Assembly (NCBI GenBank): GCA_015680685.1
Contig: MNCI01001745.1
Span: forward strand, 179,564-243,563
Origin: Gnetum montanum
Lineage: Eukaryota > Plantae > Gnetophyta
Direction of reading: 5' to 3'
DNA: 64,000 nt
The first letter of the stretch is position 1. Every line of letters begins with the position of its first letter. The notes beneath the pieces were generated by a model. The model worked only from the letters and a program-made list of their open reading frames with translations, was not told the origin of the DNA and ran no database searches. Below, one piece after another: positions 1-30,642 of the stretch. A program made the position numbers and the translations under genes.

Positions 1-830
1 AAACAAAAAAACACTACACTGAGCTTGTACGACCTAATAATGATGTTCTTCCTGCACCACAAGGATCTAATCCACATGTTGACAGCAATTCTGGTCAACG
101 AAGACATGCCAGTGGAAGAGGAAGTGATCCACTTGGTCATGCTTCCCTCTACACCCATAGAGCTAGAACCGCCTCAACTAACTTTCTATGATGATGCCAT
201 TAGGGAAGATCCCAAATAGGTCAGGTGACTATAACACCCCTATTCATCATAATTTAGGTTGATCAACACTGGATCCGAAGGGTACACGTTGATGATGGAG
301 CTACCACAAATGTCATCCCCTTCTCTATTATGGATAAATTGGGCTTGGTCGACCAGATCAAACCCACAAGGACATCATGCCTGAGGTCGTTCAATGGGGC
401 ACGCATCTTGGTGAAGGGCACAGTCGACATAGACTTCGTGGCAGGGGACCAGTACCCCAAAAATGAGATGTTCAACATGGTTGAGGAAATAACTGGGTTT
501 AACCTGATCTTGTGGAGATCATGGTTATCACAACCTAGGGTTATCTCTTCGTCCATTCAGTAGGAAATCCACCTACCATATGCAAGCAGGGAGGTGGTGA
601 TCCATGATGATGAAGTAGTAGCATAAGCGATCAATAACATAGACATGGAGCAAGGTTTAGAGGTCGTAACCTCTGAGAATGAAGCGCTTGCTTATGCACA
701 CATTAACCATCCAACGGGAGAATCAGCTCAACAGATCGGTCTCCAAAATGAAAGCGCGTGGGTTGAGTTGCCCTTCCAAGTGGGGGACAACGATGCAAAT
801 GAAGGCCTTGGAAAAGCACCTTAGCCTTAA
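1..830 (+). pseudogene. Gag C-terminus plus retropepsin-type aspartic protease, disrupted by stops
   Basis: ORFs 25-219 and 330-563 in series; RVHVDDGATTNVIPFSIMDKLGL catalytic region at ~278-348 and FNLILWRSWL (ILGRxWL) C-terminal motif. Confidence 0.85.
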
Positions 831-1014
831 CTCCGCTCAATCCATGATGGGTCAAGAAGCAACTATGCATAGCGTAGCAACCCCACTGCTTCCTACCCAA
901 TTGCCATCCTTTGCACATTACCATCTTTTGTTGTTTACAATCCATCTATCTACATAAGTTACCAGTTAGCCATTGTTCAAGTTGTTAATGTATCACCTCT
1001 TTGGCATGCTACGC

Positions 1015-1290: not shown

Positions 1291-4200
1291 TCATGGGTTG
1301 TCCTTGTTCGCATCATCTTTGCCATTTGTTTTTGTATCATTTTCTTTTGCATCGCCTTCCCCTACGTTTTCCTCTACTGATTCTTCATTCCTTTCCTCTA
1401 TGAGCCCTGCACCCTCATTTGGAGCCTACATTGTAGGAATGAAGAGGTCAACTAAAGAAATGTATGCAAGCTATAACAGAGCATAAGAATTAATACAGTA
1501 GAAAGAAAGTAACCTGAGAAGGGCTTGCATCTGTCTCAAAGGGTATCTGATCTAAACTGAGCCTGAGGTGGCGCCAGTCCTCCTCTATCATGGTGGACTC
1601 CTTTGCCGTGATGTCCACCCAACACCTATTTCATGGTTCAGCATCTGCAATAGCTCTCTCCCTTTTGGTGGTTGTTCACCTTGGTGGTCCTAGAGAAAAG
1701 GAGATGGTTGCGGTCTCTCCTATAGGAAGGTTCATTTTCCAGTTAGGAAATTCCGTAACCTTTACCTACTCTTTGAACTTGGCATAAGCCTCAGAAGCAT
1801 CAGTGACATTTACGAATTCTTTATACGTAAACGCCGCCACAGTAGTGTCCCTATACAATTTATGATGGGTGGAATTTTCTAGTTTATACATGTGTTTGTG
1901 ATTTTTCTAGGACTACCCCCATTCGTAAACCTTGGCGTTGAAATCTTTCAAATCCTGACACTTCTGGGCTAAAAAGTCCATTTAAATCTGTTGTTCTATT
2001 ATTTCGTGGATGGATTCGACGTTCTAACGTGCGACTATTCAAAATCTAGTGTAATCTATCATAGCCATGTGCTAGTCCTCATTATTAGTGTCATAGGCTA
2101 TCAGGAATTCATTCCTCGACCTGAGATCCTCCACCTCAATGCTCTGGTCGACCTCCTTTTGCTCAACTTTTTGGACCCATTTCCACAGGTCCTCGTTGAT
2201 GTGCTTATACTCCCACAAGGACCATGTCAAGTGCAAAGCACATTTTCAAGCCTCGTCGTATGCGCAACGAGACACCTCAGTCGCTTCGGATGGGAATGTA
2301 GGCACGACACTGACTTTCAAACACCATGCCAGGTCCCATTTGAGTTGAGAGGCTGCTATGACACAAAGAGTGTAGCAATCACATTAGTGTATCAAAGTTA
2401 ACAAAGTCTAAAACTCTAGTGTAGCAACATGAGAGCACCTAACACTACTACTTACCCACATCAAGGTCCACCTGCTGAAGGCAGCTGACCATGTCATTGG
2501 CGATTCCCTGCATGAATGTAAACTTATCAGAGATCTGAGCCCATGATTCCACACAAGTCGGAGGAGGTCTTGCAACATCAACAGTGGTGCCTATCACATA
2601 ACTAAATGTGTCAGCAATGGCTGAAATGGGCTATGATAAGGTAGACATATTGTCAAACTCACTAGCATTTAATTACGGTCCACGTTCCTGCTAATGCAAA
2701 ACGAGGAAGACATCCTTGGCATAAGTCCTTGCTAAGCCTATACAGACCTCTTCTTCATGTGCTGGTGCCTTTCCTTTTAGGAGGTTAGCATCTTTTTTAT
2801 GCAAGGGAGACTCCTCTTCATTAGTAGGAGGATTCTCCCTAATAATAAGAGCCCTCACCTTAGTGAAAGGAGCTCCCTTCCTTGTGACTGGGGCCCTTTC
2901 TTCTAAGACTGGGGCCTCCAAGTTTTTATTCGTCACACCTATCTTAGGGGTTGACACCTCTTCATTACCTTCTTCTTCTTCTTCTTCTTCTTCTCCCTCT
3001 TCCAGTCAAGAAACATGTTTGCATTAGTTTGAAACAAGTTAGCCTAAAGCAGGTGCTACGCTACACTACGTCGCTTAGCATACCATAGCGAGGCAGATAA
3101 TAACAAGGTAGGTATTAAATAAAAGCATTTACCAATGGCTGGTTGTGTCCTCTACAGCTTAAGCCATAGCCACCACCCCTCCTCTTCTTCCGTGTGAAGG
3201 GTTTCCTTAGTTGGAGGAGGCCTCTTCCGTTGCAACTTTTTGGCCGTAGTCTCAGCTATGAGACATTCCCCCCACGAAACGCTATTGGCTACAACAAGGG
3301 GCATCTCTCCTACGCTGTGTTGGCCATGAAAGTTGCGGGCCACCCGATCCTTAGTCATCACAGAGAATGACTTTCCAATTATTTCTAGGGGATCTTGGGC
3401 TCGGAGGGTTTGAAGAATTTGGTGAATCCATAGTCTTGAAATCTAGTTGCGATTTCAAATGACCCATGCTCCATTCTCGTGAACCACCAGAAACTCTGTG
3501 AAACGATTCAAACAGGCTATGTAAAAGGCATAATTTATATTGGAACGGGACTTCGATCTCTTATGCAACCCCAAGATTTCAGTCTGCAAGCCTTTACATA
3601 GAAACCTGGCCCAATTGTAGTGGGCTCCCTCCTCCATGACCTCATGCATTATGCAAGCCTACTCAATCCCCAGGACCTTCCCTTGGGAAAGTAGTTGGGG
3701 GAATGCGTGAGCATGGAAGATAAGGTAAATCTCAATGGCTGGTCTTTCTTTGAGCTTCTCCATGGGGAGCCCCTTTCACTCCTTGGCAATCCCTAACCAC
3801 TCCTGAATGTCCTTTTCTGAAGGGTTAGCTCCTTCTTGCTCTTCGACCCTATAAGAATGCCATTGGCAGGAACACCAAACAGGTATGCAAACAGCTGGTC
3901 ATTGATTTCAATGACCACCCATATGCCCTGTATGCACATGTGGAAGTGGCTTACCTTGTCGAAAAAGGAGTTGATTAGGGAGAGCATCTTGGCGGTAGGA
4001 ACACTTGAATTTGGGGCCAGGAATAGATCCATAAGCCCAGCCTTTTGGATATTCTAGACCAAGGAGTCCAAAGCTACACCGTTTATCCAGCGTTGGCTCA
4101 TATCTACTTCTCCTTACTTGAAGTAGATGTTTGCCGCCTGTGTCTTGGCGATTACCACCATCACCTCTTGGGGATTTTTCACCCTTATAACAATTTTCAC

Positions 4201-4655
4201 AAGAAATGTTTAGCATAAAAACATTGAAAATCCAAAGATTGCAAAGACATTTAAGCATGCAACACTTACTGTTTGGCCTACTAGGTCTGTACGGTAATGG
4301 AAATGATGAAAAACTAACTAGAACTTGTTCAACGGTGATTGGTTTGAAGGGTTCTATTCAACCCTCATCTAGCCAACTAGACTCCTTGAATTGACCATAA
4401 GGAATGGGGTATAGGTATGCATAGGTGTGGTATTCACCCTCACATTGAACAATCACACCCATGTGCAAGTTCTCAGCAGAAGAGAACTCCTGCAGGGCTA
4501 TCCGTGCTATAGCTAGCAGACCCGTTCGGTCATGGAGTCCTTCCTTGTTGATGTAGAACCTAGTAACAAAAAAAAATATTGTTAGCAATTGGCCAATATG
4601 GAAAGCATTGCACAACATAGCGGAAAAATGTTGCAAAACTCACCCGCCAGCACAG
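1291..4655 (-). pseudogene. Antisense multi-exon accessory gene, copy A (5'-truncated, decayed)
   Basis: ORF pieces 3793-4032, 3455-3649, 3152-3361 and 2691-2957 are homologous to copies B and C; GT-AG introns at 4560-4643, 4184-4269, donor 3132, ~2691-2747, 2356-2455 and 1426-1513; TGA stop at 1291-1293. Confidence 0.8.
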
Positions 4656-7600
4656 TACATAGTTCTTGGTGGGTTTTGGAAGCGTTACTCTAGGGATTTT
4701 GAGAGTTGCCAAAGGCTTGGGTGGCTGCATGAGGACTGGACCTTGGATCCACCCCTCACCGTCAAGGACGTGCAGAGGGAAATACCACCATTTCCATTGC
4801 CATTTGGCCCCATTAATGCTGTGGTGTAGTTGGTCACTGCGTAATGTAATTGTAAATTATGGACATTGCGTAATAGAGCTTTGATTAATTTGTGCTTCAT
4901 GTTGTGCAGTTAGGGAATCTCGGGAGATTACCCTTACGATTTCCAGCCGCGAGGCGAGTGCTATCCTCTTCCGCTACGGCAACATCAAGGATGCACAGTG
5001 CTGGCTTAGCCACTTGGTGGTCCCAGCTGCGGTGACCTCCAAGATCCGAGCAGCAGGGCTAATGCACCTATTTTTGGCTCCGACTCCTAATGTCCCCACC
5101 AGTGAGATGCTAACCCTAGTCAACTCCTTCAACGAAAAGGTCAAGCATTTTTGGACACGCGTACATAACGTGTGCGTAAGCTTTAACATCGACGCTCAGC
5201 TCTTCGCGGACCTCTTTGGCGTCCCCTCAGATAGCCCTCCTGTAAGTGAGAAGGTAAAGAGGAGCGAAGCTTTCCAAAATTGGCTGAAGGAGTGGGTAAG
5301 GGTCCCGAAGGAGACTAAAGGATTTCCCTACGAAAAATTCGAGATGGGCACCGCCAAGACACTTTATCCGCTTTTTTGGGCCCGGACCTTCCCCAAAACA
5401 CTCTCGCAGACGAAGTTCTTTTCCATAGAACAGACCCGTATCATGGGAGAGGTTCTGGAGGAGGGGACTCAGTTCAATTGGGCAAGCTATTTTGCCAAAG
5501 GACTGCGTAATGAGATGATAAAGCTTCGCAAGAAGCTTGAGTCCTATTTCAACGTACATTACGCGTTCTTCATAGCTTGCCTCTGGCGATTTGCTAAGTT
5601 TCTGGTCATCCGGAGGAATGGGGTCTAGGTGCAGCAAGACTGAGACCAGCTATCCAGACCTTGGATTGCCCACATCCTCAGCACTACCCGTGGGCAGGAT
5701 CCGCCGGAAGGGATCGGGGAGTCGTTGTCTATAATGACTAAGGGTCTGGCGGCGCCCTAAGTGCGAGGTCTCGATAGCGTAGGCAGGATAATGCCTACCT
5801 ACACTGGCGACGCCTCGTGAGGGAAGCATGTGGCGGAAGAAATTGTAGAACCTGCAGCTCGGCGTAAAAGGCTCCGCCTAGCCGAGGCCCCTGAGGGTGA
5901 CGCAGGCCGGACTGTGGTGCTCACAGTTCAACGGAGTAAGCCTCCGCCTGGTAAGCGTGAAAGAATTATATTACGCAATGTTTGTTTAAATGTTTTGTAC
6001 TAATATACTAAGGTGCTATGACATGACCAGTAAAAGTTATGGAAGAACTGACCCCTGAGACTGGGGCAGTAACACTAAGTCGTAGGGAGGGGGCCTAAAT
6101 TTTGGAAGAAGAGGCCCCAACTGTTAGCGTGAGCCACGTACATGCTCGGGTGCATGAGAAGGGCCCAGCTACTGGAATGAGCGACGCACAGACTCAAGTG
6201 CGTGAAAGGGAAAGGGATGCGAAAGATGTCGGCGAAGTTGCCATTGTCACTGGTATAGGTAATGGATTTGTTAGTGTGTTTGCAAGATTTCTGTAAATAA
6301 GTGAGGTTTCTAACTGGATTACGCTACAGGCGAAGAGGACGCGCCCACATCTGTCACTGTGAGCAGAGCATGGAGAGACTTCCCTGATAAATTTGCCTTC
6401 ATGGAAGGCACCGTTAGCGACATGATCGAGCGCCTGGAACGCGTCGAACCTGGAGCGGGTACGTTATGGTTGTAGTCAATTTGTGATGTTACATAAGGGT
6501 AATGTGTCATCGACGCTGATGATTGTTTCTGTTAGGAGCTCACCTCCGATGGGATCCCACTGAGCCAATTGATTTGGACACAGTGGAGCCACCATCCAAT
6601 GAAGCAGCCATGCCACGTCACATTTATGAGGAAATGCGTAAATGTGCATTACGCTCGACACTCTCCTTATGGGAGAGTAAGGGCGTTAATGAGAATCTGT
6701 GGAAAAGGTTGCAGAGGTCGGAGCAGAAGGTTGAATCTCTGACCAAAGAGGTCGGAGACTTAAAATCGCGGTGCAACTTCCTACAGGTGCAAGCGTTAGG
6801 CAATGAAGACTGGCGTACTGCTGTTGTCGATTACTCCCAGTATTGGACAGCCATCAAACACAGTGTACAGACCAGTCGCACGTTAGTCGAGCAGCGAATG
6901 CAGATAGAACTCCTAGCCCAGAAAAGCTAGGACTGGAGGGATTATTGTACAAGTGTGCAAGAATGGGGGCAGAAGGAGAAGGACCACAAGCACTTTTACA
7001 AGCGGGAAAGCATTGTTTATCGGAGACTCTACCGAGATCTTGCCATCAGGGCCCGATCCTTAGAAGTATTTTAGGACATCATCGGCGCTTCCGATGCCTT
7101 CAAGAAGTTCGAGGAGCAGGTGACCGTCAGTGCGTCCCCCGAAAGGGTGATGACTTTCCCTGGGGGTCAGGCTTCAATCCCTACTTTCTTCCTGGACCCA
7201 CCCCGCTGGAGCAGCATGGAGAAAGGGAAAGTGAAGGCTGGGGATGCCTTGAAAGAGGACGTATGGCTAGATCTAATGGAGGAAGAGATTATGAAGCACC
7301 TGTGGGCTGGTCTGGACAAGCTCCCCTTTGCTGCGGAAGCAGGGCCATCACAAGTAAGTTTACGTGCGACTTAGTTTGCATTTCTGACTGTGATGTTAAG
7401 CCTTACGTAACTAATGTGCTTACTGTGTTCAGATACCAGCCGAGGATAGGGAAGATGAACAAGCGGAGGAGTTAGCAGAAGGAGCGGCGGAAGCAGAAGA
7501 AGAAGCAGAAGAACACAACAATGAGGAGTGTCCTTCCGTGGAGCTAGCGCCGGAACAGGGACCTCGCAAGGAGGACATTCTTCGTGAAAGAGTCATTCCT

Positions 7601-7690
7601 AGAAACGATGGCACATTGGAGGACGATCCATTAGCGTTGGATCCAGACTTAAGGGATACCGGTGATAATGGCAGTAGGGAAAATGCGTAA
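4656..7690 (+). pseudogene. Antisense multi-exon accessory gene, copy B (plant-transposon accessory domain, coiled coil, acidic tail)
   Basis: ORFs 4608-4829, 5014-5628, 6102-6296, 6523-6930 and 7120-7374 joined by AT-richer GT-AG introns at ~4823-4909, 5951-6030, ~6259-6329, 6459-6535 and 7354-7432; TAA at 7688-7690; a few in-frame TAG/TAA/TGA. Confidence 0.82.
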
Positions 7691-7885
7691 TTATGATTTA
7701 CGCATAGTTTTATTAATGTTGAGTGCAATATCATTTTACAAATGACTAGAAAGATGTGTTATAAAACCTGGTGGATGCGTTAAATGTCAGTTACATATTT
7801 TTTATTCGTTTTTTGCGTTTTGCCGATAGAGTGCGAGCGTAATTGTTGAAAAGTTCACCTAAGTGATAAGGATAGAGCGTAATTC

Positions 7886-8192
7886 CTAGTTTAAGGCCGT
7901 TGCGGGCCATTGCGTAATACGCGTGAATGGTAGCAGTGTATAATTTTGTGTCACTAGTTTAAAGCCGGGCCATCACACAATTCTACGTAATCTAATAACT
8001 AGTTTAGGGCCGTTGCGGGCCATCACATGATTCTGCGTAATCTAATAACTAGTTTAAGGCCGTTGCGGGCCATCACATGATTCTACGTAATCTAGTAACT
8101 AGTTTAAGGCTGTTGCGGGCCTGTGCGTAAGCAAGCGCAAAAAGTGATAGTATACAATTCTGTGTAACTAGTTTAAGGCCATTGCGGGCCAT
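7886..8192. repeat. Tandem array with a 50-bp core unit CTAGTTTAAGGCCGTTGCGGGCCATCACATGATTCTACGTAATCTAATAA
   Basis: Units start at 7999, 8049 and 8099 with partial flanking copies. Confidence 0.9.
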
Positions 8193-8408: not shown

Positions 8409-11400
8409 TCAACCATTGATACGTAATTGTCTCTTAATGGCCTTTACATTGGTTGCTGCATAAGGGCGAAGAGACTTATGATTTTCCTCCTCTATGCTGC
8501 CGTCCGGAAACGGCAGGTCGGCCCAAACTAAACCATCATCTTCGCTGTTGGTTTGTTGAGGGGTTTGGAGATGGGTCTGATCGTCATTTGTCTCTACCTC
8601 CGAACCCTGTTCCTCTTCAATGTTATTGATGGTCCTGGGGGTGAGTTCATCACCGCGTATCACAACCTCCCCTCCGGCATAGGGAAGGTGTATCTCCTAG
8701 TGTATCAGTGATGAAACTGCCCTCAGTTGAGCTAACCACGGCCTCCCCAAGATCAGGTTGAACCCTAGCATCTCCTCGACGACTAGGAAGGTGGCCTCCA
8801 TTGGGAACTGGTCACCCACCACAAACTCGATGCGCACCGTCCCCTTGACTTGAACCCGTGCCCCGTTGAACGATTTTACGCAGGCCGTTGTCGTGGGAGT
8901 GATCTAGTCGACCAGTCCCAACCTATCCATAATGGAATAGGGAATGATGTTGGTAGCTATGCCATCATCCACGTGCACTCTCCGGATTCGGTATTGACCG
9001 ACCCGGATAGTGATAAACATGGGTTCAGTTGTCACCCGACCTTTCTCAGGATCATCTTTGATAGATCGATCATGGAAGGTCAGCGAGGAAGGCGTAGGTT
9101 GCTCAGCTTCGGGAGGAAACATGACAGCATGTATCGCTTCCTCCTCTGCTGGCAAGCTTTCATCCACTAATATGAATGTCAGCATGCGAACCATAGCCTC
9201 ACGATGTTCGCGAGATGTCATAAGCAAGTCGTATAGGCTCAGCATAGTGTTCTTTTGTTTGAGAGCCTGTCTAACTTGCGTAAATGCGTCGAGGAGATCC
9301 TTCTCTCGGCTAGGTTGTTTGCATCCCTTGTCCTCTTCCATTTGTCCCAAGAGACGGATCCCTCGAGGTGGGACAGCGTTGGCTGGAGGGCTACACTTTT
9401 CCTTGCCAAGAGGAGGCGACTGCGTTTCCGCACCTTTATCTTGCTTCTGAGGCATAGACAAGGGTACAGAGGCCAGGGGCCTAGGCTTAGGGAAGCCAAG
9501 CGTAAAGTGGTCTTTTGTTACGTTAACTGAGGTGTCCTCTCCCTTTCACATGGGAGGTGATGATTGGTTATTCTGGCTAGAGGTCTACCCCTGCGCGAAA
9601 GGAGCAACATGTGGTTTTGGCGCCCTGATAATGAAGGGTGCTCTTGGCATGGGCGCGGACGAAGCCGCGGCTTGGGAGTTGTTGCGTGACTGAGGGTTTA
9701 TGTGAGAAGGTGCCCGTATAATGAAGGGCGGCCTCGAGACGCCACTGGCTGCTGATGAAATGATTGGGCCCCTGGGTGAGTTGGCAGGTACGCGCAAGAC
9801 AAAAGGCTGTTTTGGTGATCCCTTACGCTCATCATCCGTACTCACCACAGTGATTGTATAAGGATCGTTTTTTGCGTTCAACGGGTCCTTATATACATGC
9901 AGTGTTTGGTTTTCCGGACGTGTCGGATTACTGCTGTCTAATTTTAGATGACCTTCATCGATCATGCATTGAATATCGTCCTTTAATGCCCAGCAGTAAT
10001 CCATGTCGTGATCACACATCTGGTGGTAGTCACATAAACGGTCGAGCTTGAAGATCTCGGAACTGCTGGTTCATTAAGTAAGGCTAAAAAAGGGTCTTTT
10101 AGCAATTCACAGTGATGTCTGTGACGCTTCAGAGCTTCCTCGGACACCTTCTTAGGTTGAATGTGCCCTGCCGCTAACAGTTGTTTCAGCAATTCGGAAT
10201 GCTTCACAGGTAAAGCCGCATATTTTGAACGATCTTTACGTTCAAAATTTTGCTTTGGCTGGGGGGCCTTTTCAGGGGTCACTGTGATTTGGTTGGTGCC
10301 AACACTAGCCGTGGCCTCAGACGCTGTTGTGGGCGCCTTCTTGTTCTTGTTCTTTGGGCTTTCAGTCAGCGCGGCTACTGTCGTTGTTGCCGCCTTACCC
10401 TTCTCTTTGGCCTTGTTGTGTGCGTTCCTGTAGGCGACATACACTGGGTCTTTGCTAGCCTCCGCAGCATCTTGGATGCTTCTAACTTGCACGAAGGCCT
10501 GGTGTAAATTACTTGGGGAAAGGTAGTACAACTTTGACTTAATGAAGTCGTTGACCGCTCCTTTGAACATAGCCAACATATGTGAGTCCACGATCGGCTT
10601 GCAAATCTCGTTCAAGGTAGCATTCCAGCGCTATATAAACTTTTGGACGGGCTCGAGCGGGTCTTGTTTCACCCCCATGAGTTGATCTAGTGTGACTTCT
10701 GGTTTCAGGTTGTATTTGAAGCGGGTGATAAATTGGGTCAGCAGCTCTTCCAAGGTTGAGATGGAAGAGCGTGGGAGGGCTCGGTACCAGTCCAAAGCTT
10801 TCCCTGTTAATGACATTGCAAAGACTCTAATAATCATATTTGGCCACTGTTGAAGCAACAAGGATTCAGATCGAAAGGTGACTAAGTGAGTGTTGGGATC
10901 CCCTCCCCATTGTATTTGGTGAAATGAGGCAGAGACATCCCTGGTGGCAGTGACAGCATTGGCACTGCTGGACTAATCGGATCATCCTGATAAAAGTCCA
11001 TGATCTGAATAGCATCAGATCCAGTGGCTTTGAGGTGTCGAACCTCCTCAGTAAGAGTCTGTATCAGCTGGAAAGCTTGGCCCAGGCCTGTTGATGGAGG
11101 TGCCTGTGCAGAAGGCATTGGAGGTTGGACCGGGAGGGCAGCGCAAGGGAACAAAAATGACGGGATGGGTTGACTGGTTGGTTGTGGGGAAGGGATCCCA
11201 GCAGGAAAGGGAGCCTGCGAAGACCACCACCCGCTGGCTTAGGCAGAGGGTTTAACTGCTGCCTGCTACACAATATAGGGATGGGTATACTACGGCATCC
11301 TCTATGGAGCTTGCGTTATAGGTGCAACCGGGGGCTGCACGCCGTATACCACAGGCTGAGCATGTTGCGCCCCGGATTGGCCCACTGACCTGCAGCATGC

Positions 11401-12239
11401 TGTTAGATGTATGTTTGTGGCTGAGTGACTACAGCGATCTGTTGAGTTTGCGGATGCGGAAGCGACAAGGCTTGGGCCGGGCGCGTTACAGATACGGTAT
11501 GGGGTTGTATCTGAGGGATGAAATGGGGCACGGTGGTCGCCGGGATCACCACTGGGATGCTAAGTACCCATTGTGACGGAACCACCCCTGTGTTATTGTG
11601 CGGTATTTGTGCTTGCAACCCAAACGACTGTGCATTGGCATGCGGCATGGCAGGGAAATACGTCTGCGCGGTCATGGCTGGGTCAAGAGGTGCGGCTTCT
11701 CCATTGAAAGGAAACGAGGGATTTATATACGTTTGGGGGCTCAGAGTATGGAACGAAGGTTCCAGAGTATGGAATGAATGCTCCGACTGGGCCACAAATT
11801 CGTCCTCTTCCTCCTCCCCATGTTGGGGCTCCTGCATAGCTTGTGAAGCCTAGCCTTTGGCCATGACCAACTATGTGATAAGTTCATGTTGGTGTTCGGT
11901 TAAGGGAATTATGTCGTAAGCTATTGGCTTAAAATCATAGCCCCCTCGGTGGAGCACCTCAAAGTTTCGCTTCGCTTCGAGTTCGGCTCAACTGAGAGCC
12001 AGCTTCGCCTGGATCTTAACGCATATGAAGTTGTATTCTTCAGGGGTTATAACCGTGAAGATAAGCTCTTTTCCCTGGAGCCTCAATGAATGGTGCAATG
12101 GTCCCTGAGATCTCGTTGCGCCAGGAGCTGGTCCTGTGACCGCCATAGGATTCACAGGTGCGGCACCCAGATCGGTAGGGNAAACTGCCATGGTCCCTAC
12201 CGATCTGGGTGCCGCACCTGTGAATCCTATGGCGGTCAC
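8409..12239 (-). pseudogene. gag: gag-protease of element B (frameshifted)
   Basis: Capsid-like SLTGKALDWYRALPRSSISTLEELLTQF (10631-10861), Tat/Ogre-type knuckle CDYHQMCDHDMDYC (~9993-10035), protease RVHVDDGIATNIIP (~8940-8980); ends with a stop, no RT follows. Confidence 0.88.
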
Positions 12240-12516: not shown

Positions 12517-12517
12517 N

Positions 12518-16155: not shown

Positions 16156-19100
16156 TCAAATGTAGTACAGCTTGAGATACAAGTGATTCACCGGGTTGAC
16201 GAACTTGTTGCCTTCCATGTCCACTAGCTTAAAGGCTTAATTCCCGAAGGCTTTAGTGACCACGTAAGGACCTTCCCAGTTGGCTGAGAATTTGCTCACA
16301 TGCTCACAAAAGGCCTTGAGGATGAGGTCTCCCTTTTGTACTAGCTGTCGATGTAGGTCTGCACATTGCTTCTACTACTATTTTCTTTGGTAGTGCTCAA
16401 TGTGTCTCAGCGTCTGCGCGCACTCCTCCTCCACTGAGTCGAGGTCGATGGTTCATGACTCATTGTTCTGGGCTTCGCTCATGACATCTGCGAGGATCAT
16501 CCAGAGTAATGGTACCTGCAACTCAAGAGGAAATATAGCTTCAAATCCGTAAACAAGAATGCAAGGGATCTTACTTGTTGTGGTCTAGCATGTTGTTCGG
16601 TAGGCCCACAACACGTAGAGGATTTGCTCGTGCCACCACCTCTTGCTATTGCTAAGAATCCGCTTCAGTAAGTTGATGATGGACTTATTTGTAGCCTCCG
16701 CCTACCCGTTCACCTATGGATAATAAGGGGAAGAAAATGATTATTTAATGCCTAGATTGCTATAGAAGGTTTGGGTTTCCATATTGCTGAACTGTGACCC
16801 ATTGTCGGTCACAATAGTCATTGGAAGCCCAAACCTTGTTACAATATTTTCAAAGATGAAATGGCAGATTTGCTAAGACGTCATCTTCCTCATGGAAATA
16901 GCTTCCACCTACTTGGTAAAATACTTAGTGACGATGATAATGAAGCTATGCCCTGCAGAGGACTTAGGCGTGATAGGCCCTATGAGGTCTAATCCCCATC
17001 ATTGGAAGGGCCACATGATTTGCGTTGGGTGTAGGTCTATAGGCGAGACGTGTATGAGATTTCCGTATCTCTGGCACATGTCGCATGTCTTGACTTTTGA
17101 CAGGCAGTCATGTTCCATGTGGGGCCAGTAGTATCCTAGGAATTTGATTTTGGTAGTCATAGGCTTGGGTGTTATGTTTCCACTGCACATCCCCTCATGT
17201 ACTTCATTAACTACCTTCTGTGCTTGCTCGCCACCCACGCATGCTAGCAATATCCCATCGTAGGAATGTCAGCATAGGGCATTATTTCCCATGAGCATGT
17301 ATTGCCAGGCATGCTTCTGGATTGCATCTCTTTGGGTAGATGTCAATCCACCTGGGGGTTCACCATGCTATAGATAAGTTTTAATGTTGGCATACCACTC
17401 TAGGGTATCCGCAGCACTGACAGAAGCCACGTGTTCCACCTCAGTGATAGGCTCTACACATTCTATAATCATAGTTGGTAGGTTTTCCAAGGAATGTGAT
17501 AGAATTTTTAACGCAAGTGTAGCTAAGGCATCTACCATGGTGTTCTCATTGTGTGGCACGTGTTGCACATCTATGGTTGCAAATTGCTTAAGTAGGATTT
17601 TTGCTAGATCGCAGTACGGTTGCAGGTGTGTAGCTTTGTAGGCATAGACCTCAATGATTTGATTCATGACTAGTTATGAATCTCCTCAGATTGCTAGGTG
17701 TTGTATGCACAGTGCTCAGGTAGTTAAGAGGCCTCTGAGTAGCCCCTCATACTCTTCCATGCTATTGGTGCAAGGGAATGTAAATCGATAAGCAGATGGA
17801 TGCATTTCCCAGAGGGGAACGTGATTATGGCAGTGGTGCTACCTCCTCGCACGGTTGAGGCATCATTGAATTGTAAGGTGATTTTGAAAAGTAATGGGAC
17901 GATGTGGACATTGCTAACATATTCATCTGGGAATTTGGGGTCTATGGTTGCCTAGTCATTGACTGGTGAGGCTGTGAGTTGGGTCGCTATGGCTTGACCC
18001 TTTTTCGATGATTGACTTACATGGCGTAAATCAAACTCTGCGGTTATTGCCTTCAATCGGGCTATCCTGCTACTTTCATATAAGTTGTTAGTAATAGCTT
18101 GGAGTATATTACTTTTTCAAATGATGTTGGTTGTACTATGGAACAGGTAGTGCCACCACTTTTTTTAGTGCAAACACTAAGGCCAGGCAGTTCCTCTCCA
18201 CTTCATTGTATTTCTCCTCGTGCACTATTAGCGCATGACTCAGATAATACACTGGTATCTCAAAACTATTGCTTCATTTCTGACATAGTAGTGCCACAAC
18301 AGATGTGTCAAAGGTGGCGAGGTACATAAAGAAGGGTTTATCCCTTTGTGGCAGATGCACAGTTGGGAGGTGTGAGAGTTCCTTCTTTAGGTCGTCGAAG
18401 GCTTGTTGACACTAGGTTATCCATTCGAAGTTAACCCCCTTCTCTAGAAGATGTTGCATGGGGTGTAACTTGTTGTTCAACCTTGCTATAAAACTTCGAA
18501 TGAATTACACTCTACCTTGCAAACCACATAATTCCTTAAGGTTTTTGGGAGGCATTAGGCCTTGACTTTGTCAAGGTCCACTTGTATTCTAGCCTCCAAT
18601 ACTATGAACCCTAACATGCATCTAGTTTTCACCTCGAAGACTCACTTCTTAGGATTGATGCGTAAGTAATGCATCTGGCAACATTTGAGGACTACCTCTA
18701 GATCATGTGGGTGATCAGCTACCTCCTCGGATTTGACTGCTATATCATCCATGTATTCGTTTAATGTTTCTAGGATGTAGTCACTGAAAATGTAAGTCAT
18801 GGCTTGCTGGTAGGTTGCTCCATCATTCTTGAGCTTGAAGGACATCATGGTATAGCAGAAGGTCCCCCATGGGGTCATGAAGGTTGTTGATAGCTAGTGC
18901 CCTAGGTTAATGCAGATTTGGTTGTATCTAGAGAAATCATCCATGAAGGATAGCAGAGCATGGCCAGCCATGGTGTCGATGAGCTGATCAATGCTTGGAA
19001 GTAGAAAGTTATGCTTGATCGTTGCCTTGTTCAAGTCCCAAAAGTCTATACAGATCCGTATTCCTATCATTTTCTTTGAAACCATAATGACGTTGGACAC

Positions 19101-19664
19101 CCACTCTGAATAGTCAACTACATGGATGAAACATACTTGGTATAGCTTGGTGATTTCATCCTTCATGGCTAGTGCGATTTCTGGCTTAACTTTGTTAGCC
19201 TTCTGCTTAACTGCCTTCATGTGTGGGTCTAGGACGATGTTGTGCTGATTCAGCCATGGATCTAGACCCAGCATGTCATTGTACAACCATGCGAAGACAT
19301 CGATTTTGTCTTGCAGAATCTTGGCTATGCTTTTGTGTGTTTGTGTGTCTAGGAGGGAGTTGAGTCTTAACGTTTTCACCTCCCCCTTTGACGTGGTGAT
19401 GGGCATCTTGGTGAGAGGGTCCTTGGTTACATCCATGACCTCTAAGTCTAGGGCTTGGACCAGATTCTTGGGCCAGTCTGGGAATGCTTCTAAGGCTACT
19501 ATAGTACTAGTTGTGGTCAACCCCCAGTTGATCATGTCGAGGTTCAACTATCTCACGAGCTTGCCCTGTGGCCCTGCTAATGTTAAAGGTGTAGAAAGGT
19601 CACAATGGATTCCCATCTCTTGCTTGACCTACCATCATAAGATGAAAGCCTAGTTAAGAGGCAT
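16156..19664 (-). pseudogene. pol: pol: reverse transcriptase, RNase H, additional archaeal-type RNase H, integrase (Tat order), decayed
   Basis: RT: IRICIDFWDLNKA, SFMDDFSRYNQI, TPWGTFCY, YMDD (18642-19300); aRH: QFND, TNSMEEYEGL, HVPHNENTMVDALA (17500-17880); INT: HEGMCSG, CDMCQ, WPF, GPY-like (16156-17250). Confidence 0.92.
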
Positions 19665-19749
19665 CTTTTGGTAGAGATTGTGTGTAATGAAAATTTGCAA
19701 AGTAGCAATGAGATGCAACTTGCGAAGTGTGATGATGTAAAGATTGCAA

Positions 19750-20180: not shown

Positions 20181-20329
20181 TATTTTTAGACCTTTAATCA
20201 AAAACAAATATTTTTTTTTGTTTTCGGGAAGGCAAGTAGCTGGCTTGAAGCATGCCAAGGCTTTAATGCTAATAGTGCTACGATGTCATGACAAGCATGC
20301 TACGCTATATGGCGCGCTCTGCATTAATC

Positions 20330-20395
20330 GGAGAGAGAGAGAGGCAAGGTTCCCCATTTTGTCATTACGGCCATAAATAGGGGTTAAACCCTAGA
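20330..20395 (+). promoter_or_regulatory. Putative promoter of the antisense gene (GA repeat, TATA-like box, telo-box-like AAACCCTAG)
   Basis: (GA)n at 20330-20344, CATAAATA at 20372-20379, AAACCCTAG at 20386-20394, upstream of the first recognisable exons. Confidence 0.5.
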
Positions 20396-21164
20396 AATTT
20401 TACCATTTTTATCGTAAGAGCATAGAGCCCACATCGGAGCACAAGGCAATTTTGGAGCATGAAGAAATTGTGTTAATCGACTAGTAAGCCAAGTTTTTAT
20501 AGCGAAAGGTGTAAATCTGCAAGCGGGACAATGGCTCCTATGACTCATTTGGTGCTTGCAAGGGTTGAGGAGGTGAAGAAGACCCAGGGACATGCACCAT
20601 AAGCACACGTTATGGCACAAAAGAGCACACTATTGACCCAGTAGGTTACTATGTCTCCTTCACTTTTTCATTTTGTGCTTTCTATTGTTCTCTGCTCTTG
20701 TTTTGCATCCATTCTTGGCTACCTGTGTTTTCTGTGGTCGCATCATTTTAGCCTTTGCATCGCTGCTATCACCATTTTGGTTGTGGCATATGCATAAACG
20801 TTACGTCGTGGTTGCATGCAAGGCCGCTGAAACCGCCACCACCTTTTTTTGTCATAACCGCGGGGGCTGGGGCAGTTTAAGTTGCTTGACCTTAGCATGC
20901 TGTAACGTAAAACCCTTGGGAGGGCCAGGCCATGTGTGATGCGGCAACGTGACATGTGTTTTATTAGAGCATGTTGTCAATTTTTTTGTTGATACACTAG
21001 GCTTATTCACATGTTCTTGCTATGCTAGGCTTTCACGCCCTTGCTACGCTATGTACAGGCAGAGGGTTATGCTACGCTATATATATGGATTGCTTAGATG
21101 TTGCTACGTTTCACGTGTATTACCTTTAAGTATGATGCTAACATTCACTGATTAAGTTGTGTAG

Positions 21165-21831
21165 GGTAGGGCCAAGCCCCAGGCTAATCATTTTGAAAAT
21201 TAGAGGGATCCTGTGCCATGTGAGCAGACCTGTGGCCAACGCCCCTCCTCCCCAGATACATATGGGAGAACGAGGGATCTGGTTCAGAGAAGGGGCATGG
21301 GACTTCTTGCAATTCCTTCTCAACCACTTTAGTGTGATCGCTTGGTCTTCCCTAGAGGAGGAGGAGGCATCTAGCATAATAGAATCCATGTTGCCTAGGG
21401 AAAGTTGGGGCATTCTGACATTTTTTACTAACCGGAAAATCATGAAAAGGTAAGGAGAGGGATCCAACCAATGCTCAATAGGGTTAAGGCATTTAGCCTA
21501 GATCTAGGACATGCCTAAATACAACTGTTATCACCATTACAACACATTGTTCCTCGCATGTTACATGGTAACATGCTTTCAGAACCCATAGGGGACTATC
21601 TATTGTGCTGGTGGGTGATTTTTGCAGTCTTGCTTCACTATGTTGTGCAATGTGGACCATATTGGCCAAATGCTAACAGTATGTGTTTGTTATTAGGTTC
21701 TTTATCAATGATGATGGGGTTTACAATTGATTGGGTCTGCTGGCTATAACACAACCTGCCCTACAGGAGTTCTCTTTTGCTAAGAACCTATGGGTGGGTG
21801 TGATTGGTCCGTGCGGGGGAGAATACCATAC
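21165..21831 (+). pseudogene. Antisense gene copy C, 5' exons: FCP1/NIF (HAD-fold CTD-phosphatase-like) domain
   Basis: RLIILKIRGILCH...WFREGAWDFLQFLLNHFSVIAWSS...YNTLFL...FQNP resembles the NIF pattern LLVLDLNGLL..RP..EFL....F.V..WSS..NTLL.D..NP; acceptor at 21164 with CTAAC branch site; intron 21615-21696. Confidence 0.65.
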
Positions 21832-22650
21832 TAATGAGTGGCGAGGTACCCCTACACTCAACCATATGAAACGAGCGTTGCACGCGCGATCCGGTCGAAC
21901 TCTGCAGATGGACCAGTTGTGGCATCTAGATTAGTTAGCCTTAGGTCGCATTTCGCTGTCTTCCCATCTAGACTAGTTTTGCATATGTCACGTATGGTTT
22001 AGTCTAGATGAGGTGTATGATGTGTTCCTAATTNNNNNNNNNNNNNNNNNNNNNNNNNNNNNNNNNNNNNNNNNNNNNNNNNNNNNNNNNNNNNNNNNNN
22101 NNNNNNNNNNNNNNNNNNNNNNNNNNNNNNNNNNNNNNNNNNNNNNNNNNNNNNNNNNNNNNNNNNNNNNNNNNNNNNNNNNNNNNNNNNNNNNNNNNNN
22201 NNNNNNNNNNNNNNNNNNNNNNNNNNNNNNNNNNNNNNNNNNNNNNNNNNNNNNNNNNNNNNNNNNNNNNNNNNNNNNNNNNNNNNNNNNNNNNNNNNNN
22301 NNNNNNNNNNNNNNNNNNNNNNNNNNNNNNNNNNNNNNNNNNNNNNNNNNNNNNNNNNNNNNNNNNNNNNNNNNNNNNNNNNNNNNNNNNNNNNNNNNNN
22401 NNNNNNNNNNNNATCACATTCACCACACTGCGGGCAGACACGGGAAAATTCTAACTCTGGAGGGATCAAACTGCCAGAGCTTTGCTACACTAAAACTGGG
22501 ATGTGAAATAAGGGAGAGCCGCCTCTTATTTATAGAAATGACGGCTGACTGCGATATCGCGTACGCGATATCGTAGGGAAGGATGTGATATCGCGTACGC
22601 GATATCGCGGGGGATGTGATATTACGGCCGATGCAGACCACGTCTCATCA
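21832..22650 (-). repeat. 3' LTR of element F (contains N gap 22034-22412)
   Basis: Both flanks of the gap match 29645-29846 and 30388-30642. Confidence 0.92.
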
Positions 22651-25608
22651 TAGCCCCACGACTGAATAAAAACTCGTCCTCGAGTTACAAGGAAAACAAG
22701 CTTCAGTGATTACACAGTGGATAGGTATGGGATTATTAACTAGAAAAAAGAATGGACTAATGTCGCAGTGTGGGAAGACACAACATAGAGAAAAACTGCT
22801 ACAACTGCAAAAATGGGGAACCCATGTAGTTCCTGGTGGTGGTGGCTCCTCCATGGGTGCTTTCCCTTTGTCACGTGCTCCAAGTTTTGAAGATTGATGA
22901 CGTTGAAGAATAGCCTGGAGTTTCTCCTCTTCGGTCCGAGGGTCTTGTGCCGTCCATGCTGATGCTCCGATGGTTGATGGAGTCGGCACTTCCCACGGAC
23001 AGGGTATTTGCGGGAACATCTGATTAGCTTTGACGTACCACGCCGCAAACACCTGTCGTTCCTCTTCAAAGGCTTTGTCTTTGTCTTTGTATTCATGAAG
23101 TTCTATTAGCCATCGAGCTAAGTCGGTTGCCACATCGTTCTGTCCTTGGTAGCTCTCTTTAACCACCATGAGTTCAGAATTTGCAACATCTAATTTTTCA
23201 GCCAACTTCTTTCGTTCTGCAAACTCTGCCTCATATTTGATGTAGGTGGAAGCTACCTGCTGATCGAGCTCTAACCTCAGGTGTCCTGCTGTTAACATGG
23301 CCAGGTTGGCATATTGAAGGTTGGCCAACTCCATGTATTCAGTTAAGTCTTGGATCTGCAGGTCCCAGTTCTTAATTTCCGCCTGGTGGGCATAGGCATA
23401 TGTGTCCAATATGGCCCCCCAATCAGTGTGCTGGGCACTGATATTGTTGATTTGGGCTTTTTCCATATGGATCTCCTTCTCTAGGATCTGTTTGTACATC
23501 CCCACCTGGTCACGGAAGTGCTCCTTCAGCTTCTCGTGTCGTTTAGCCTCATTCTGCCACACACTAATCTCGATGGCTGATTTCTGTCGAATAGCACGCA
23601 CCTCCTCCATTGAGAGTGTTCGATTTTCTCTAGCTAAATGGCTTACGTCTTGGTTGAATCGAATGAATTATTCTTGCAGCCAATGAAAGTGCTCATCGAG
23701 AACATTCTTTTATTTTTCCACAGAAGTCAACCGAAGGTTGTCGGCAACCAACTGCTTGTTTTCTTCTTGTAAGGCCTTGAGTGCCTTAAGATGCGCATGA
23801 GTTTGCGCCTTTGCTGTGGAGGAATCCCAAGTGGCCGTCTCCTTCTCTTCTGCCACCTTCTTATTTTCTGCAATTAATTTGGTTAATTGCTCAGTTTTAA
23901 AATTGTCTAACTAGTCTGTGGGAACCAATCGCAAGGGATCCCGCTGTGCTTCTTGTAAGGCAATGAGCTGCTCTTGTAATTTCTGCACTTTAGCCTCAGC
24001 ATGCTCAACACTTACTTGGGATATGACTAGTTTCCCCTTGGTTGAAATGAGGTCTGACTGCATTGCGGTTACATCCTGAGGGAAGTCAAACAAGGACGTT
24101 AAAACTTGTCCTGTTTGAAGCAATCTATCCAATGCATCCTCATGTTCTGCAGGAGTCATTGAGGTTCTGGCAATGATTTGAGCATCCCGTGCTCCTGAAA
24201 GATCTGCTAGTGGCACAACAGGTACATGAAAAGATTCCTTTATGTGGTCAGCTACCACATCAGCTACTCCAGCGGCATCCTGGTGTTGCATGACCACTAT
24301 TGTGGCCCCTTCACCAGTCTCTAATTGTACTTGAAAAGATGCCGCATGTCTAGAAATCTGTTGTGACCATCTACTTTTCCCTCCTCCTGTTTGCATTGAC
24401 AACTCACCCCTTGTGCAATCTATTGAAATTGTAGGCTGCCTGGCATCATCGATGACATGGAAGAGACTGGTGTCATCACGACTTCCCCAACTGACCATCT
24501 CAGCAATGGCCCTTAAATGGCTCATTGACGGTCTATAGTCTTGCGGCGGCAGCTGATCCTGACCTGTACCGGGTTCTGCCTCTTGTTGTTGGCTAGGACC
24601 TGTGGTTGGAGGTTGACTGGGTCCTGCAAGCTGAGTTGCAGGGGTTTCAGTCACTTGTTCTTTATTTCCCTCATCTGGTCCCAACTCTTCGCCAGTACTC
24701 TTTCTTGGAGCTGGCGCCTTTAGTAATTTGGCGTAAGAAGCATTTTGGGCCTTTCGGAGGACGTCATTTGTATATCCCCGAATACCTGCCCGACGGCACA
24801 GTTTTCTGATAAGACAGGGAAAAGGGAGTGCCATTTTTCCTGTCTTCCGTTCTTCGAATCGCCTTAGGATCTCTGTCAAATATAGATGAGGAAGGTTAGC
24901 GTTAACCTTTCCCATCAACACTGCACATCCTCTTGCCGCATACATTGATATTCTCTTTAAGCCTTTTGTGGGGAAGAGGTGATAGGTCCCGATTTTGAAA
25001 TAGACTCGTTCTTCCGTGGTCAGCTCATCAAAAGTCTTATCTCTGCCATAGGCCTTTTCTAGCCAATCCTTTCGCACATCAGGGTCGGATCGGGTGGATA
25101 ACCGAGCAACATGGGGGCCTGAATTCGGAAGATATAACACTTCCGAAATCGCCTGTGCAGAAAAATCTACTGACACACCACCAATGTTTACTGTGGTGCC
25201 TTGCTCTTTATTGTGCCAAAACAGGTACGTTTCTCCTAAGTACCAGGCACTTTGTTCAGAGAGGACAGGCCATAAGGGAGACCCTTTAAGGTGATCCCTA
25301 ATAGCCTCAGGAGCGAACTCTGCAAAAGATTCGAAGTTGAGTTCCACAATCACTGAAGCAATTGTGGACTTCGTGTTGATGGCCTGAACACATTCCGGGG
25401 GCAACGTGAGTTGTTGTCCCAGTTTAGGCACAGCAGCTCCTCCTTCTACTTGCCCGGACCGTCTGGTAGGAGGCTCATTTTGATGGATACTGAATGAATG
25501 CACCTCCTGTTCATTATGTTGTCCTGCAGGGACTTGTCTTCGACCTCTCCTAGGTTGCTTTGCTCCACCTTGGGTCGGACTCTTCTGCTGGGTGCGTTTC
25601 GGGGCCAT
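22648..25608 (-). pseudogene. Athila env-like/ORF2 accessory protein, ancestrally one ORF of roughly 900-990 aa with a long C-terminal coiled coil
   Basis: ORFs 23911-25614 and 22648-23610 share a frame and are separated only by one TAG and two TAA codons; motifs VNIGGVSVDFSAQAISEVLYLP and LPFPCLIRKLC are typical of the Athila ORF/plant transposon accessory domain. Confidence 0.8.
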
Positions 25609-26074
25609 CTGCAATCACACGGGCCAACATTAGTAAGGTTGTTTAGGAAATCAAGTTATACCTTACTATTTGCCTTAATTAAAGATCATATGTTATTGTG
25701 TGATCGTGCCCGAAAATTAGGAGAGTGGGTCCTATGACTTAGGCGAATTTCGGTTTAATCTCCCGGTATACTTAAGGTCATATGATTTATGGTGCAATTT
25801 CCTAAGTGTTAGTATTAATTACCCTAATTGATGTCCTTTGGGCGATGAAGAATTTCAAAAAAGTTAGGCACTTTTCGGCAAGTGTCTCTCCCCCACGACT
25901 AAACTGAACACTCCGGGTTCAAGCAGGTTCAAACGGAATTAAAATCGGAGTACCAGTGCGCGAGATAGAGTGGAAAAAGCAAGGGTCACTCAAGCGCAAG
26001 TCGCATAGAAAAAATTTCAAAAACTTCCCCCCGCGTAAATGCCAAATGATGCAAAGTGTTGCAGTGGGGGTTCC

Positions 26075-26162
26075 TATTTATAGGAAAGGGGGGACGCGAT
26101 ATCGCGTACGGTACATCGCATACGCGATATCTTGTGGGACACGATATCGCGTACGCGATATC
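26075..26162 (-). promoter_or_regulatory. Internal LTR-like promoter upstream of the env-like ORF
   Basis: TATAAATA at 26075-26082 preceded by GCGATATCGCGTACGCGATATC palindromes, mirroring LTR U3 at 30502-30618. Confidence 0.7.
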
Positions 26163-27544
26163 TTGGCCCAACCAAAGTGAGACAACTAACAAAGACCAAA
26201 TTTTAAATGATTTTTCTTGCAATTAATGTGTAAAACTAGGACATTAACAAGAAGTAATGGACTCAAGGGTAATTACAAGAATTCGAAAGGCACCTTGAAT
26301 GAGATAGGTGTGAATTTAACAATTAAAACTTTTGGTGGTTATGAAGAAAAGGGAATATAATAGTACATTAGAACGTTAAAAATTGGAGGGTTAATAAATG
26401 GGAAAGAAAATTATGAAAAAATAAGATGAGGGTCAAAAATTGTGTGTTCTAGCTGGACAATTAATGAAGATTACAACAAAATTACACAAGTGGGTCCTCC
26501 CCAAAGTAGGTTTCAACCTATTATGCCCTTGTGTAATCACACTTAAAGTGTCTGTGGGCACTAGAAGGGTTAGAGGTAATTTGCACTAACTCCACAAAAC
26601 ACACACATGTAAACATCACCGGAATGAGATGAAAATTTTATGTTACACGGGACACGAGCTACAATTACACGAACAATGAGATGAGACGAAGTGTAGAAAG
26701 GGATCGTAGAGATCGGGACATGAGGTATCTAACTCAGGGTACAATGAATCCTGTGTGTAAAGCATGGTTAATGTGTCATTAACCCATCGTTCCAAGATCA
26801 GGACCAAGTCCATCCTTCTAAACAGTGACATCGCATTGTTTCATCTCGTGATGAACAACTATGAGAGTACCATAACAACAAGGCGTACGATCACTTGGCG
26901 TTTAGTACAAGGGAGGAGTGATTTTTGTTTTATGGCACTTTTCTTTTTCTTTTTTTTTCTTTTTCACTTTACTGAATCCAGAGAAGCTGCCAACCTTCAG
27001 GCATGGGTGCATGTCTTTCCATTGGGACCCCCTAGAACAGATTTTGAATTTTGAGTGCCCTTTTGATTCCTCTTACTCCCATTTTCATTAGATCTACAAG
27101 GATCTTAGTACAACCAGGTTGCATGATAACACCCACGAATGTCACCAAAGAGAATCCACAAGTCCCCTTGATGTCACATCCTAATCATTCCCTCTTGGTC
27201 CATCCTTCTTCATTCTGTATACAATGAACACAAAATTAATTTTAAGTTTTTAGAAATCTCAATAATATCACTGTACCCACAAACAGAACCTCTTTATTTA
27301 TAGAGTGGATGAATGGATGTAGTGGGCTCATTGTTTCAAATAACTGATCACTCATGACTTAATAACATAAAACACATCTCAACCAATGATCCACATGAGT
27401 GTTTTATTCATAAATGAGATTACTTACAAAAAAAAAAAAAGACAAACACACAAAAAGATAAAAAAAAAAGTTGAAAAATGAAAAACTGGAAAACATAAAG
27501 TTATAAAATTAAAGAAAATTAAAAACATTTATTAATCCTTCTTG

Positions 27545-29524: not shown

Positions 29525-29625
29525 TGTTGTGTGACTTTTTAATAATTATTATTTTCTGAAAGATATATCGTTAAGTTCTTTACAGCGACCTTGTATGATA
29601 TAACTAATCTAGATACCTAGCACCA

Positions 29626-29643
29626 TCCCCGGCAACGGCGCCA
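29626..29643 (-). other. Primer-binding site, tRNA-Asp type (Athila)
   Basis: TGGCGCCGTTGCCGGGGA one base inside the 5' LTR end. Confidence 0.9.
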
Positions 29644-29644
29644 A

Positions 29645-30642
29645 TGATGAGTGGCGAGGTACCCCTACACTCAACCATACGAAACGAGCGTCGCACGCGC
29701 GATCCGGTCAAACTCCGCAGATGGACTAGTTGTGGCATCTAGCTTAGTTAGCCTTAGGTCGCAATTCGCTGTCTTCCCATCTAGACTAGTTTTGCATATG
29801 TCACGTATGGTTTAGTCTAGATGAGGTGTATGATGTGTTCCTAATTCTATGCTACTCCTGAAGGCAATGGAAAATAATATTAACTGATCTAAGCTAAGAG
29901 GAAAAGGGTAAGAAAATCTAATCTAGCCTTAAGTGCGACGAGCAACCGATTCCTTGATTAACCGTACACATCTTGGACTTCGTGCACGACTGCCACTAGG
30001 ACTACCAAGCATAGGCCTAGGTATGCCACTGGGATTACCAAGAGCAGACCCCGAATACGCCATTGGGTTACCAAGCGTAGATTCCCCTAGCTACACCATT
30101 GGGCTACCAAGCAGTCACACTTAAATGCTCGTAACCAAGTCGTACTCATTCCACTTCTAAGGTGAGGAACTAATCGCAATGAGTAACCGATTCCTTAACT
30201 AGCCGTACACACCCGTAGATGCTCGTAGTTAAGTCGTGCTCACACTGCGCTATGAAAGTAATAAATAACATGAAATAAATAACAATAAATAAACTAAGTG
30301 AATGCTGCAATGATGAATTAATATTGATCTTTATTGTTGGTCATGTGCATGTCCAAGTACGGCACACTCAAATAAAGACACCATACAATCACATTCACCA
30401 CACTGCGGGCAGAGACGGGAAAATTCTAACTTTGGAGGGATCAAACTGCCAGAGCTTCGCTACACTAAAACTGGGATGTGAAAGAAGGGAGAGCCGCCTC
30501 TTATTTATAGAAATGACGGCTGACTGCGATATTGTGTACGCGATATCGTATGGAAGGACGCGATATCGCGTACGCGATATCGCGGGGGATGCGATAGCGC
30601 GTCGGACGCGATATCGCGGCCGACGCAGACCGCGTCTCATCA
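29645..30642 (-). repeat. 5' LTR of element F (998 bp)
   Basis: TGATGAG...CTCATCA inverted termini; TATA at 30502-30509; GCGATATCGC repeats; ~30-bp CCACTGGGATTACCAAGC-like tandem units at 29993-30112. Confidence 0.93.

Follow-up and report, generated by a model that had tools for sequence, protein, structure and literature searches.

We find that three retroelement copies (A, B and C) in the window, the 64-kb stretch of DNA that was analysed, carry an intron-bearing protein gene on the strand opposite to gag-pol. Plant retroelements lie nested in the window, and with good confidence we place the gene in a Tat/Ogre-like Gypsy family, where it lies beside gag-pro in three copies and between protease (PR) and reverse transcriptase (RT) in the fuller copy. 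As part of the same reading, the gene likely has its own promoter and its introns are likely kept because the reverse-transcribed RNA shows them as CT...AC; more tentatively, its product may be a nuclear helper.

Copy B (4692..7690, + strand) is missing the 5' end of the gene and comprises the exons 4692-4824, 4910-5950, 6031-6258, 6330-6458, 6536-7353 and 7433-7690, which together give 869 codons with seven stops and no frameshift. Copy A (1291..4688, − strand) was scored over 924 codons, which contain 20 stops and a single frameshift. Copy C is severed by an insertion, E, into a 5' part (20531..21831, +) and a 3' part (30648..33750, +), the latter scored over 871 codons, where 18 stops but no frameshifts occur. 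Once the five introns common to all copies are removed, about 870 codons lie in a single frame in B and C, and in A with its one frameshift. A and B meet head to head at about 4689, where both are cut and their RT sides are missing; since the junction lies there, position 4656, from which an earlier sequence-only reading of this DNA started its region, is in A-derived DNA. In a self-comparison of the window, A (1041-4377) and C (30695-34011) are 73% alike in opposite orientation and their adjoining gag-pro regions 73.5%, whereas copy B was detected mainly at the protein level. Among the 45 stops in A, B and C, 35 are private to one copy, and each of the 17 reads that related copies supply over one stop of B has a sense codon there. 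All three copies are what decay has left of a gene that was once intact.

To set intron boundaries, all three frames were read in each copy, and a switch of the homologous frame marked an intron. The resulting introns of B are 4825..4909 (85 nt, phase 1, with a donor that is non-canonical in this copy), 5951..6030, 6259..6329 and 6459..6535 (80, 71 and 77 nt, all phase 1 and GT-AG) and 7354..7432 (79 nt, phase 0, GT-AG). Those of A lie on the − strand at 4269-4185, 3132-3002, 2662-2570, 2455-2356 and 1513-1426, and those in the 3' part of C on the + strand at 30803-30887, 31938-32068, 32399-32487, 32602-32702 and 33530-33615. Intron 1 measures 85 nt in all three copies; four reads of a related copy with differing intron letters (run X14) retain its acceptor in B. 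The sequence-only reading had claimed five GT-AG introns at equivalent places in A, B and C. The places and phases do agree: in the protein alignment of the three copies the introns fall at columns 97-98, 449-451, 557-562, 600-601 and 882, with phases 1, 1, 1, 1 and 0 in each copy. The splice-site part of the claim fits only 9 of the 15 introns, with a GT donor in 14 and an AG acceptor in 10; the five other ends read TAA, TGG, CAA, CAA and AGG.

Eight of the 15 intervals first proposed are exact at both ends, namely introns 2 to 5 of B, 4 and 5 of A, and 2 and 5 of C, and the others were shifted or wrong. The donor of A at 3132 had been placed correctly, and the frame now sets its end at 3002, which gives 131 nt, as in C. 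For intron 1 of A and of C and intron 4 of C, the AG chosen earlier is one base away from the position that keeps the frame, and intron 1 of B begins 2 nt later than proposed, at 4825. The 57-nt intervals taken for intron 3 in A (2691-2747) and C (32314-32370) are in-frame coding sequence with a stop codon at the end; the homologue of B's intron 3 lies about 85 nt downstream in both copies and begins GTGAGT. A sixth intron, described as common to A and C, is indeed present (A 4643-4560, C 21615-21696), in phase 2 in both.

The splice signals stand well above background. Scored against the donor consensus GTRAGT, 12 of the 14 GT donors match at five or more of six letters, compared with 11.8% of GT sites overall in those regions. 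The branch-site motif CTRAY stands near the acceptor in 11 of 15 introns but in 11% of shuffled ones. Boundaries were picked by frame plus consensus, so that the binomial figure of 5e-10 overstates the signal enrichment. Fourteen of the 15 introns have lengths that are not multiples of three, and GC content is 27-40% in introns against 46-53% in exons.

The protein sequences have diverged to 59% identity between A and C, 37% between A and B, and 35% between B and C. The Nei-Gojobori method, with two codons of C masked in the alignment, gives a dN/dS of 0.36 (A-C) and 0.21 (B-C). In comparisons of B with A/C, synonymous sites are saturated or close to it, and for A-B they are saturated. Bootstrapping gave a pN/pS of 0.41-0.53 for A-C. 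On the gene strand pN/pS is about 0.47 and 0.56, and it rises to 0.70 and 0.93 when the same codons are read on the opposite strand; identity between B and C by codon position is 0.55, 0.61 and 0.39, third positions being the least conserved. The antisense gene was under purifying selection, in line with the long-term selection suggested from the letters alone. Post-insertion decay inflates dN/dS, and selection in active lineages was therefore likely stronger than the measured ratios. Introns of A and C are 68-74% alike; those of B compared with A/C score 0.43-0.59, against 0.40-0.56 for shuffles, and their positions and phases are unchanged, which bears out the earlier remark that B differs strongly in DNA and keeps its splice places. 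Because the interiors of B and A/C are at shuffle level and the positions are kept, splice positions outlasted complete turnover of the intron interiors.

The position of the gene within the element was derived from its neighbours. In all three copies it stands tail to tail with gag-pro, whose ORF ends on the opposite strand 400-700 nt from the gene's stop codon, with a tandem array between. The gag-pro of B (8410..11900, −) contains a Retrotrans_gag domain and a protease region that matches the Ogre-like relative P0021; between its end and the gene's stop lies an array at 7880..8190 (+) with a 50-nt unit and the motif CTAGTTTWARG. This array motif was counted 17 times, against an expected 0.21. 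The end of A's gag-pro (1..870, +) is followed by a 27-nt tandem array at 1016-1122. In C, gag-pro (34350..36350, −) has its 5' end cut by another element, and the arrays are at 33929-34272. A fourth, more distant gag-pro, F (43879-46700, +), is followed by a CTAGTTTTAGG array as in A, B and C; the spacer motif is present in F, and the antisense gene was not detected there.

The pol of copy C (16170..19575, −) encodes RT, RNase H, an additional RNase H (RVT_3), an integrase zinc finger and the integrase core, in this order. The profile search returned RVT_1, RT_RNaseH, Integrase_H2C2 and rve, with RVT_3 (E 4.8e-12) between RNase H and integrase, and detected no protease domain in this pol. The element thus has the Ty3/Gypsy set of gag, PR and RT-RH-INT, where PR was recognised by the match to P0008/P0021 and not by Pfam, and it has in pol the additional RNase H (aRH) of the Tat clade (OTA). 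The best relatives of C's RT are plant proteins at 37-49% identity, and the top matches carry the same domain set; P0008 and P0021, which were found with the RT of C, also match protease regions of C, or of A, B and C. Insertion E, an Athila-like element without pol (21832..30642, −), splits the gene in C and is flanked by the duplication CATAC (21827-21831 and 30643-30647). Since the homology of A with C extends to either side of E and the 5-bp duplication is present, copy C continues upstream from 21831; and because pol lies directly beyond the 5' part of C, the element strand reads gag-pro, array, antisense gene, spacer, RT-RH-aRH-INT. The gene lies between protease and RT, as seen in the single copy C joined across insertion E, and the PR-RT spacer is about 6 kb without E. 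The sequence-only reading had recognised the gene itself and overlooked both this placement and the upstream exons.

The arrays or the CTAGTTTWARG motif on either side of the gene, the lack of a detectable gene beside F, and a sub-cut-off Pfam NIF match (see below), which suggests a captured cellular-type domain, would suit a DNA transposon or host gene that was inserted once between PR and RT and then passively carried, its introns merely inherited. Passive carriage, however, predicts a dN/dS near 1 and splice sites that erode like the interiors, whereas the observed ratios are 0.21-0.36, the sites are kept and the interiors randomised. The motif is moreover in direct orientation and also occurs after the integrase (15947) and in F, so that it does not mark the ends of a cassette, and no transposase family was matched. 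We regard passive carriage as unlikely, and an origin of the antisense gene by capture as quite plausible.

Gene and element also share their divergence. The identity ranking of the copies is alike in the gene and in the protease region (A-C 69%, A-B 64%, B-C 62%). Stops per 100 codons are 0.8 in the gene of B against 0.4-0.7 in its gag-pro, and 2.1 in the gene of C against 1.8 in its pol; gag-pro of C, in a single-frame reading, has 3.9 and is above the gene of C. Within the 64-kb window, neither an intact LTR pair nor a target-site duplication was found for A, B or C. In an LTR-like stretch at 11960-13836 (−), the segment 11975-13826 is flanked by a PPT-like word on the upstream side and a PBS-like one downstream, and no second copy of this stretch occurs in the window. 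The 5' LTR region of B directly follows the 3' region of C, and B apparently lies within the 3' LTR of element C or has it in common. This same LTR region of B contains a 658-nt mirror duplication (11859-12516) around an N at 12181 that is 98.5% self-complementary and likely an assembly artefact.

The head-to-head fusion and truncation of A and B and the position of B's 5' LTR region on C's 3' region indicate that DNA rearrangement acted here, and together with the LTR pairs and target-site duplications that the window did not yield they could point to copies spread at the DNA level, by recombination, segmental duplication or a Helitron-like carrier, in which case orientation would be irrelevant. 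Yet every copy holds the same place beside gag-pro, and synonymous sites between B and A/C are near saturation. Related DNA is also abundant over the whole pol-spacer-gene stretch in two organisms. These three points suit ordinary retrotransposition. We consider DNA-level spread very improbable. In related DNA contigs of the two organisms, all 30 bins from integrase to the 5' exons had a summed depth of at least 2,559, against 4.6-11.3 for single contigs; this sum, hundreds to thousands of times that of a single contig, is no copy number. Single contigs of other copies bridge the start of pol and two upstream intron-exon boundaries; among the contigs listed none spans the whole spacer, which is tiled with gaps.

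The orientation of the gene bears on how its introns outlast retrotransposition. Read on the gag-pol strand, the 15 intervals have no GT start and no AG end; 10 begin with CT and 14 end with AC. Under the known rules of the spliceosome, the introns would then pass into each new copy, since none has GT/AG ends on the strand that is reverse-transcribed. In the mechanism that we propose, the spliceosome would be unable to remove the antisense introns from genomic RNA, and new copies would inherit them; the introns would be removed only from the gene's own antisense mRNA, such that splice sites would be selected and interiors would drift. The sequence-only reading had offered this same account of intron survival, and it fits the anatomy of the element. 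Survival by antisense orientation is, though, expected as a deduction from spliceosome rules, with precedent in HTLV-1 HBZ, and adds no new principle.

Expression of pol across the cassette could then involve Ogre-like splicing or a separate promoter. Site 19575 (−), pyrimidine-rich, AG-ending and just before the RT ORF, is a candidate acceptor for an Ogre-like splice from gag-pro, and when the gag-pro ends were aligned, no sense-strand donor stood out as convincingly conserved. A more elaborate reading, which we consider possible but doubtful, is that in a plant Tat lineage the Ogre PR-RT intron has grown into a 6-kb cassette with a nine-exon antisense gene. The cassette would be sense-spliced for Gag-Pol, eight antisense introns would be spliced to yield a phosphatase-like protein of a new family that modulates chromatin or Pol II, and only unspliced RNA would be copied. 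If true, the same DNA would undergo splicing on both strands, differently on each.

Upstream of the parts common to all copies, C contains a candidate first exon (20531-20644, +), a candidate intron (20645-21164), a NIF-like exon (21165-21449), a second candidate intron (21450-21582) and a mini-exon (21583-21614) that precedes the sixth intron; the frames of the first two upstream junctions do not close in copy C. A likely promoter of the antisense gene, near 20375 (20256..20453, +), coincides with a local peak of related DNA contigs and contains TATA-like and AAACCCTA words, which we take to be promoter motifs. The NIF-like exon scored 19.4 bits (E 8.7e-4) against Pfam NIF, below the cut-off of 21.8. 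The catalytic motif of NIF/FCP1-like HAD phosphatases is DxDx(T/V); the catalytic aspartates are missing in the single copy C, at a score short of the Pfam gathering threshold.

The product would comprise about 1,000 residues: a NIF/HAD-like part, a helical domain, a basic NLS-like stretch, an acidic linker, a coiled-coil-like part and an acidic tail, of which the basic stretch, the coiled-coil-like region and the tail were read by eye. The main domain had no match in Pfam, including PMD, Transposase_28, Transposase_32 and the transposase families, and may bear a likeness to PMD at the level of motifs. No homologue of it was found among 196 candidates of near length or 7,991 longer proteins scored. 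The three matches among 1.84 billion representatives were all tandem-repeat proteins aligned via repeated stretches and were discarded. Kinship with Transposase_32 gained no support: hhalign against the ORF of E gave 0.1-0.4% probability, matched by 12 of 500 shuffles, in a comparison that had three decayed copies only. PDB sequences gave no match for the main domain and one chance match (E 1.6) for the NIF-like exon. Two AlphaFold models were unusable (pLDDT 34.7 and 39.4), and Foldseek with the second returned nothing at E ≤0.001. By analogy with the nuclear role proposed for antisense ORFs in other Tat elements that combine PMD or Tr28 with a coiled coil, the product may be a trans-acting nuclear helper that favours transcription of the element or shields it from silencing; we put this assignment forward tentatively.

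RNA reads were profiled in four runs over 1000-12000 and two over 15900-21833, at low depth and with nearly all reads from related copies (in run X10, 896 of 1,180 reads are less than 90% alike to the window). Junction reads had been suggested as a check on splicing, and no intron junction appeared among the six joints listed for 1000-12000 or among the 15 of 311 joints listed for 15900-21833, at a depth too low to exclude splicing. Loose read ends at two acceptors of B are unspliced reads with differing intron letters (nine reads in X11, four in X14). Reads of X10, a run that looks stranded, have a single polarity per element in 7 of 7 bins of the B gene, 10 of 10 of B gag-pro, 7 of 9 of the A gene and 15 of 17 of pol, and also in all 12 bins of the spacer plus 5' gene; intron bins are covered. 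This pattern would match unspliced genomic-strand RNA if the first mate is sense; antisense read-through could give the same pattern.

The gene might instead have mattered chiefly as an antisense RNA that regulates gag-pol, with the protein secondary. Such a role has been raised for antisense ORFs by Vicient and Casacuberta (in sections of PMC7264820); here the gene converges on gag-pro, and the X10 reads would be antisense over gag and pol too if the library is a standard stranded one. Codon-level purifying selection and introns that restore the frame show, however, that the protein sequence was selected, and we hold a primarily regulatory RNA to be most improbable. A protein-coding antisense gene is the reading that we retain.

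Antisense ORFs of Tat-clade Gypsy elements include maize Grande gene23, rice RIRE2, the Retand Tr28 ORFs and the PMD ORF of gymnosperm lineage III; for Grande an own promoter has been demonstrated, and PMD plus a coiled coil occurs in some Tat lineages (sections of PMC7264820, PMC4408406 and PMC11963269). These ORFs and the gene described here are alike in being antisense to gag-pol, in multiple copies and near tandem arrays. The Tat ORFs are placed after pol, before the 3' LTR, or else precede gag, whereas the present gene lies between PR and RT; it shares with aORF-3R the antisense orientation and conservation among copies but not the location 3' of pol. Unlike the Tat ORFs it has 6-8 introns and no Pfam PMD or Tr28 match. 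The word "intron" is absent from the main-text portions consulted of PMC7264820 and PMC11963269, the former of which, a review, only urges a search for spliced antisense transcripts.

Ogre has the same split gag-pro/pol layout as the present element, and the aRH position is also that of Retand. With a mean length of 274 bp, the PR-RT spacer of Ogre is an intron that some of its transcripts lose by splicing (sections of PMC6317226), whereas the spacer here measures about 6 kb and holds a whole antisense gene, and the RT is only 37-49% identical to the 23 angiosperm and other relatives matched. The HTLV-1 genome, which is likewise reverse-transcribed, contains hbz, an antisense gene that is spliced and codes for a protein (PMC1459196). 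HTLV-1 is a retrovirus and hbz transcripts start in the 3' LTR; the likeness is one of retention logic, with no sequence relation implied. The Boty-like Gypsy elements of Botrytis also have an additional antisense gene, brtn (as cited in parts of PMC4227169 and PMC8365987), which differs in protein and host.

Our literature search turned up no case of an antisense gene with introns between PR and RT, though a prior report is possible. The searchable 17,418 characters of the PMC6317226 supplements do not mention NIF, and the portions consulted of PMC12477816, PMC6431247, PMC4093653 and PMC5408684 hold no closer case. The PR-RT position, the six to eight introns and a protein domain without a credible relative look new. 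Additional antisense ORFs are common in plant Tat elements and intron survival per se is unsurprising; what surprises is where the gene lies, how many introns it has and what protein it encodes. The antisense gene supplies a selected protein family without detectable relatives and a natural test of strand-dependent intron retention, and it raises the question of how RT is expressed with 6 kb and a converging gene between gag-pro and RT. Annotation pipelines would miss or fragment a many-exon gene amid gag-pol, and gene finders could call it a host gene.

Other elements in the window were annotated alongside. Element E has LTRs that are 95-96% identical, a gag and long sense ORFs, one with a Transposase_32 match (23914-25614) and a second at 22651-23667; a possible splice acceptor stands immediately 5' of the first ORF's ATG. 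Beyond gag-pro F, 46700-51200 holds other AT-rich repeats. Two related fragments at 14800-15100 and 52860-52990 have no Pfam match and look like pieces of a LINE endonuclease. AT-rich two-copy repeats, 70-80% alike, pair 36331-39507 with 59707-62878 and 41855-42754 with 52968-53876. A second Gypsy pol, AT-rich and strongly decayed (54500-57760, +), has an RNase H-like stretch upstream of RT, which is the aRH position described for TatI and TatII.
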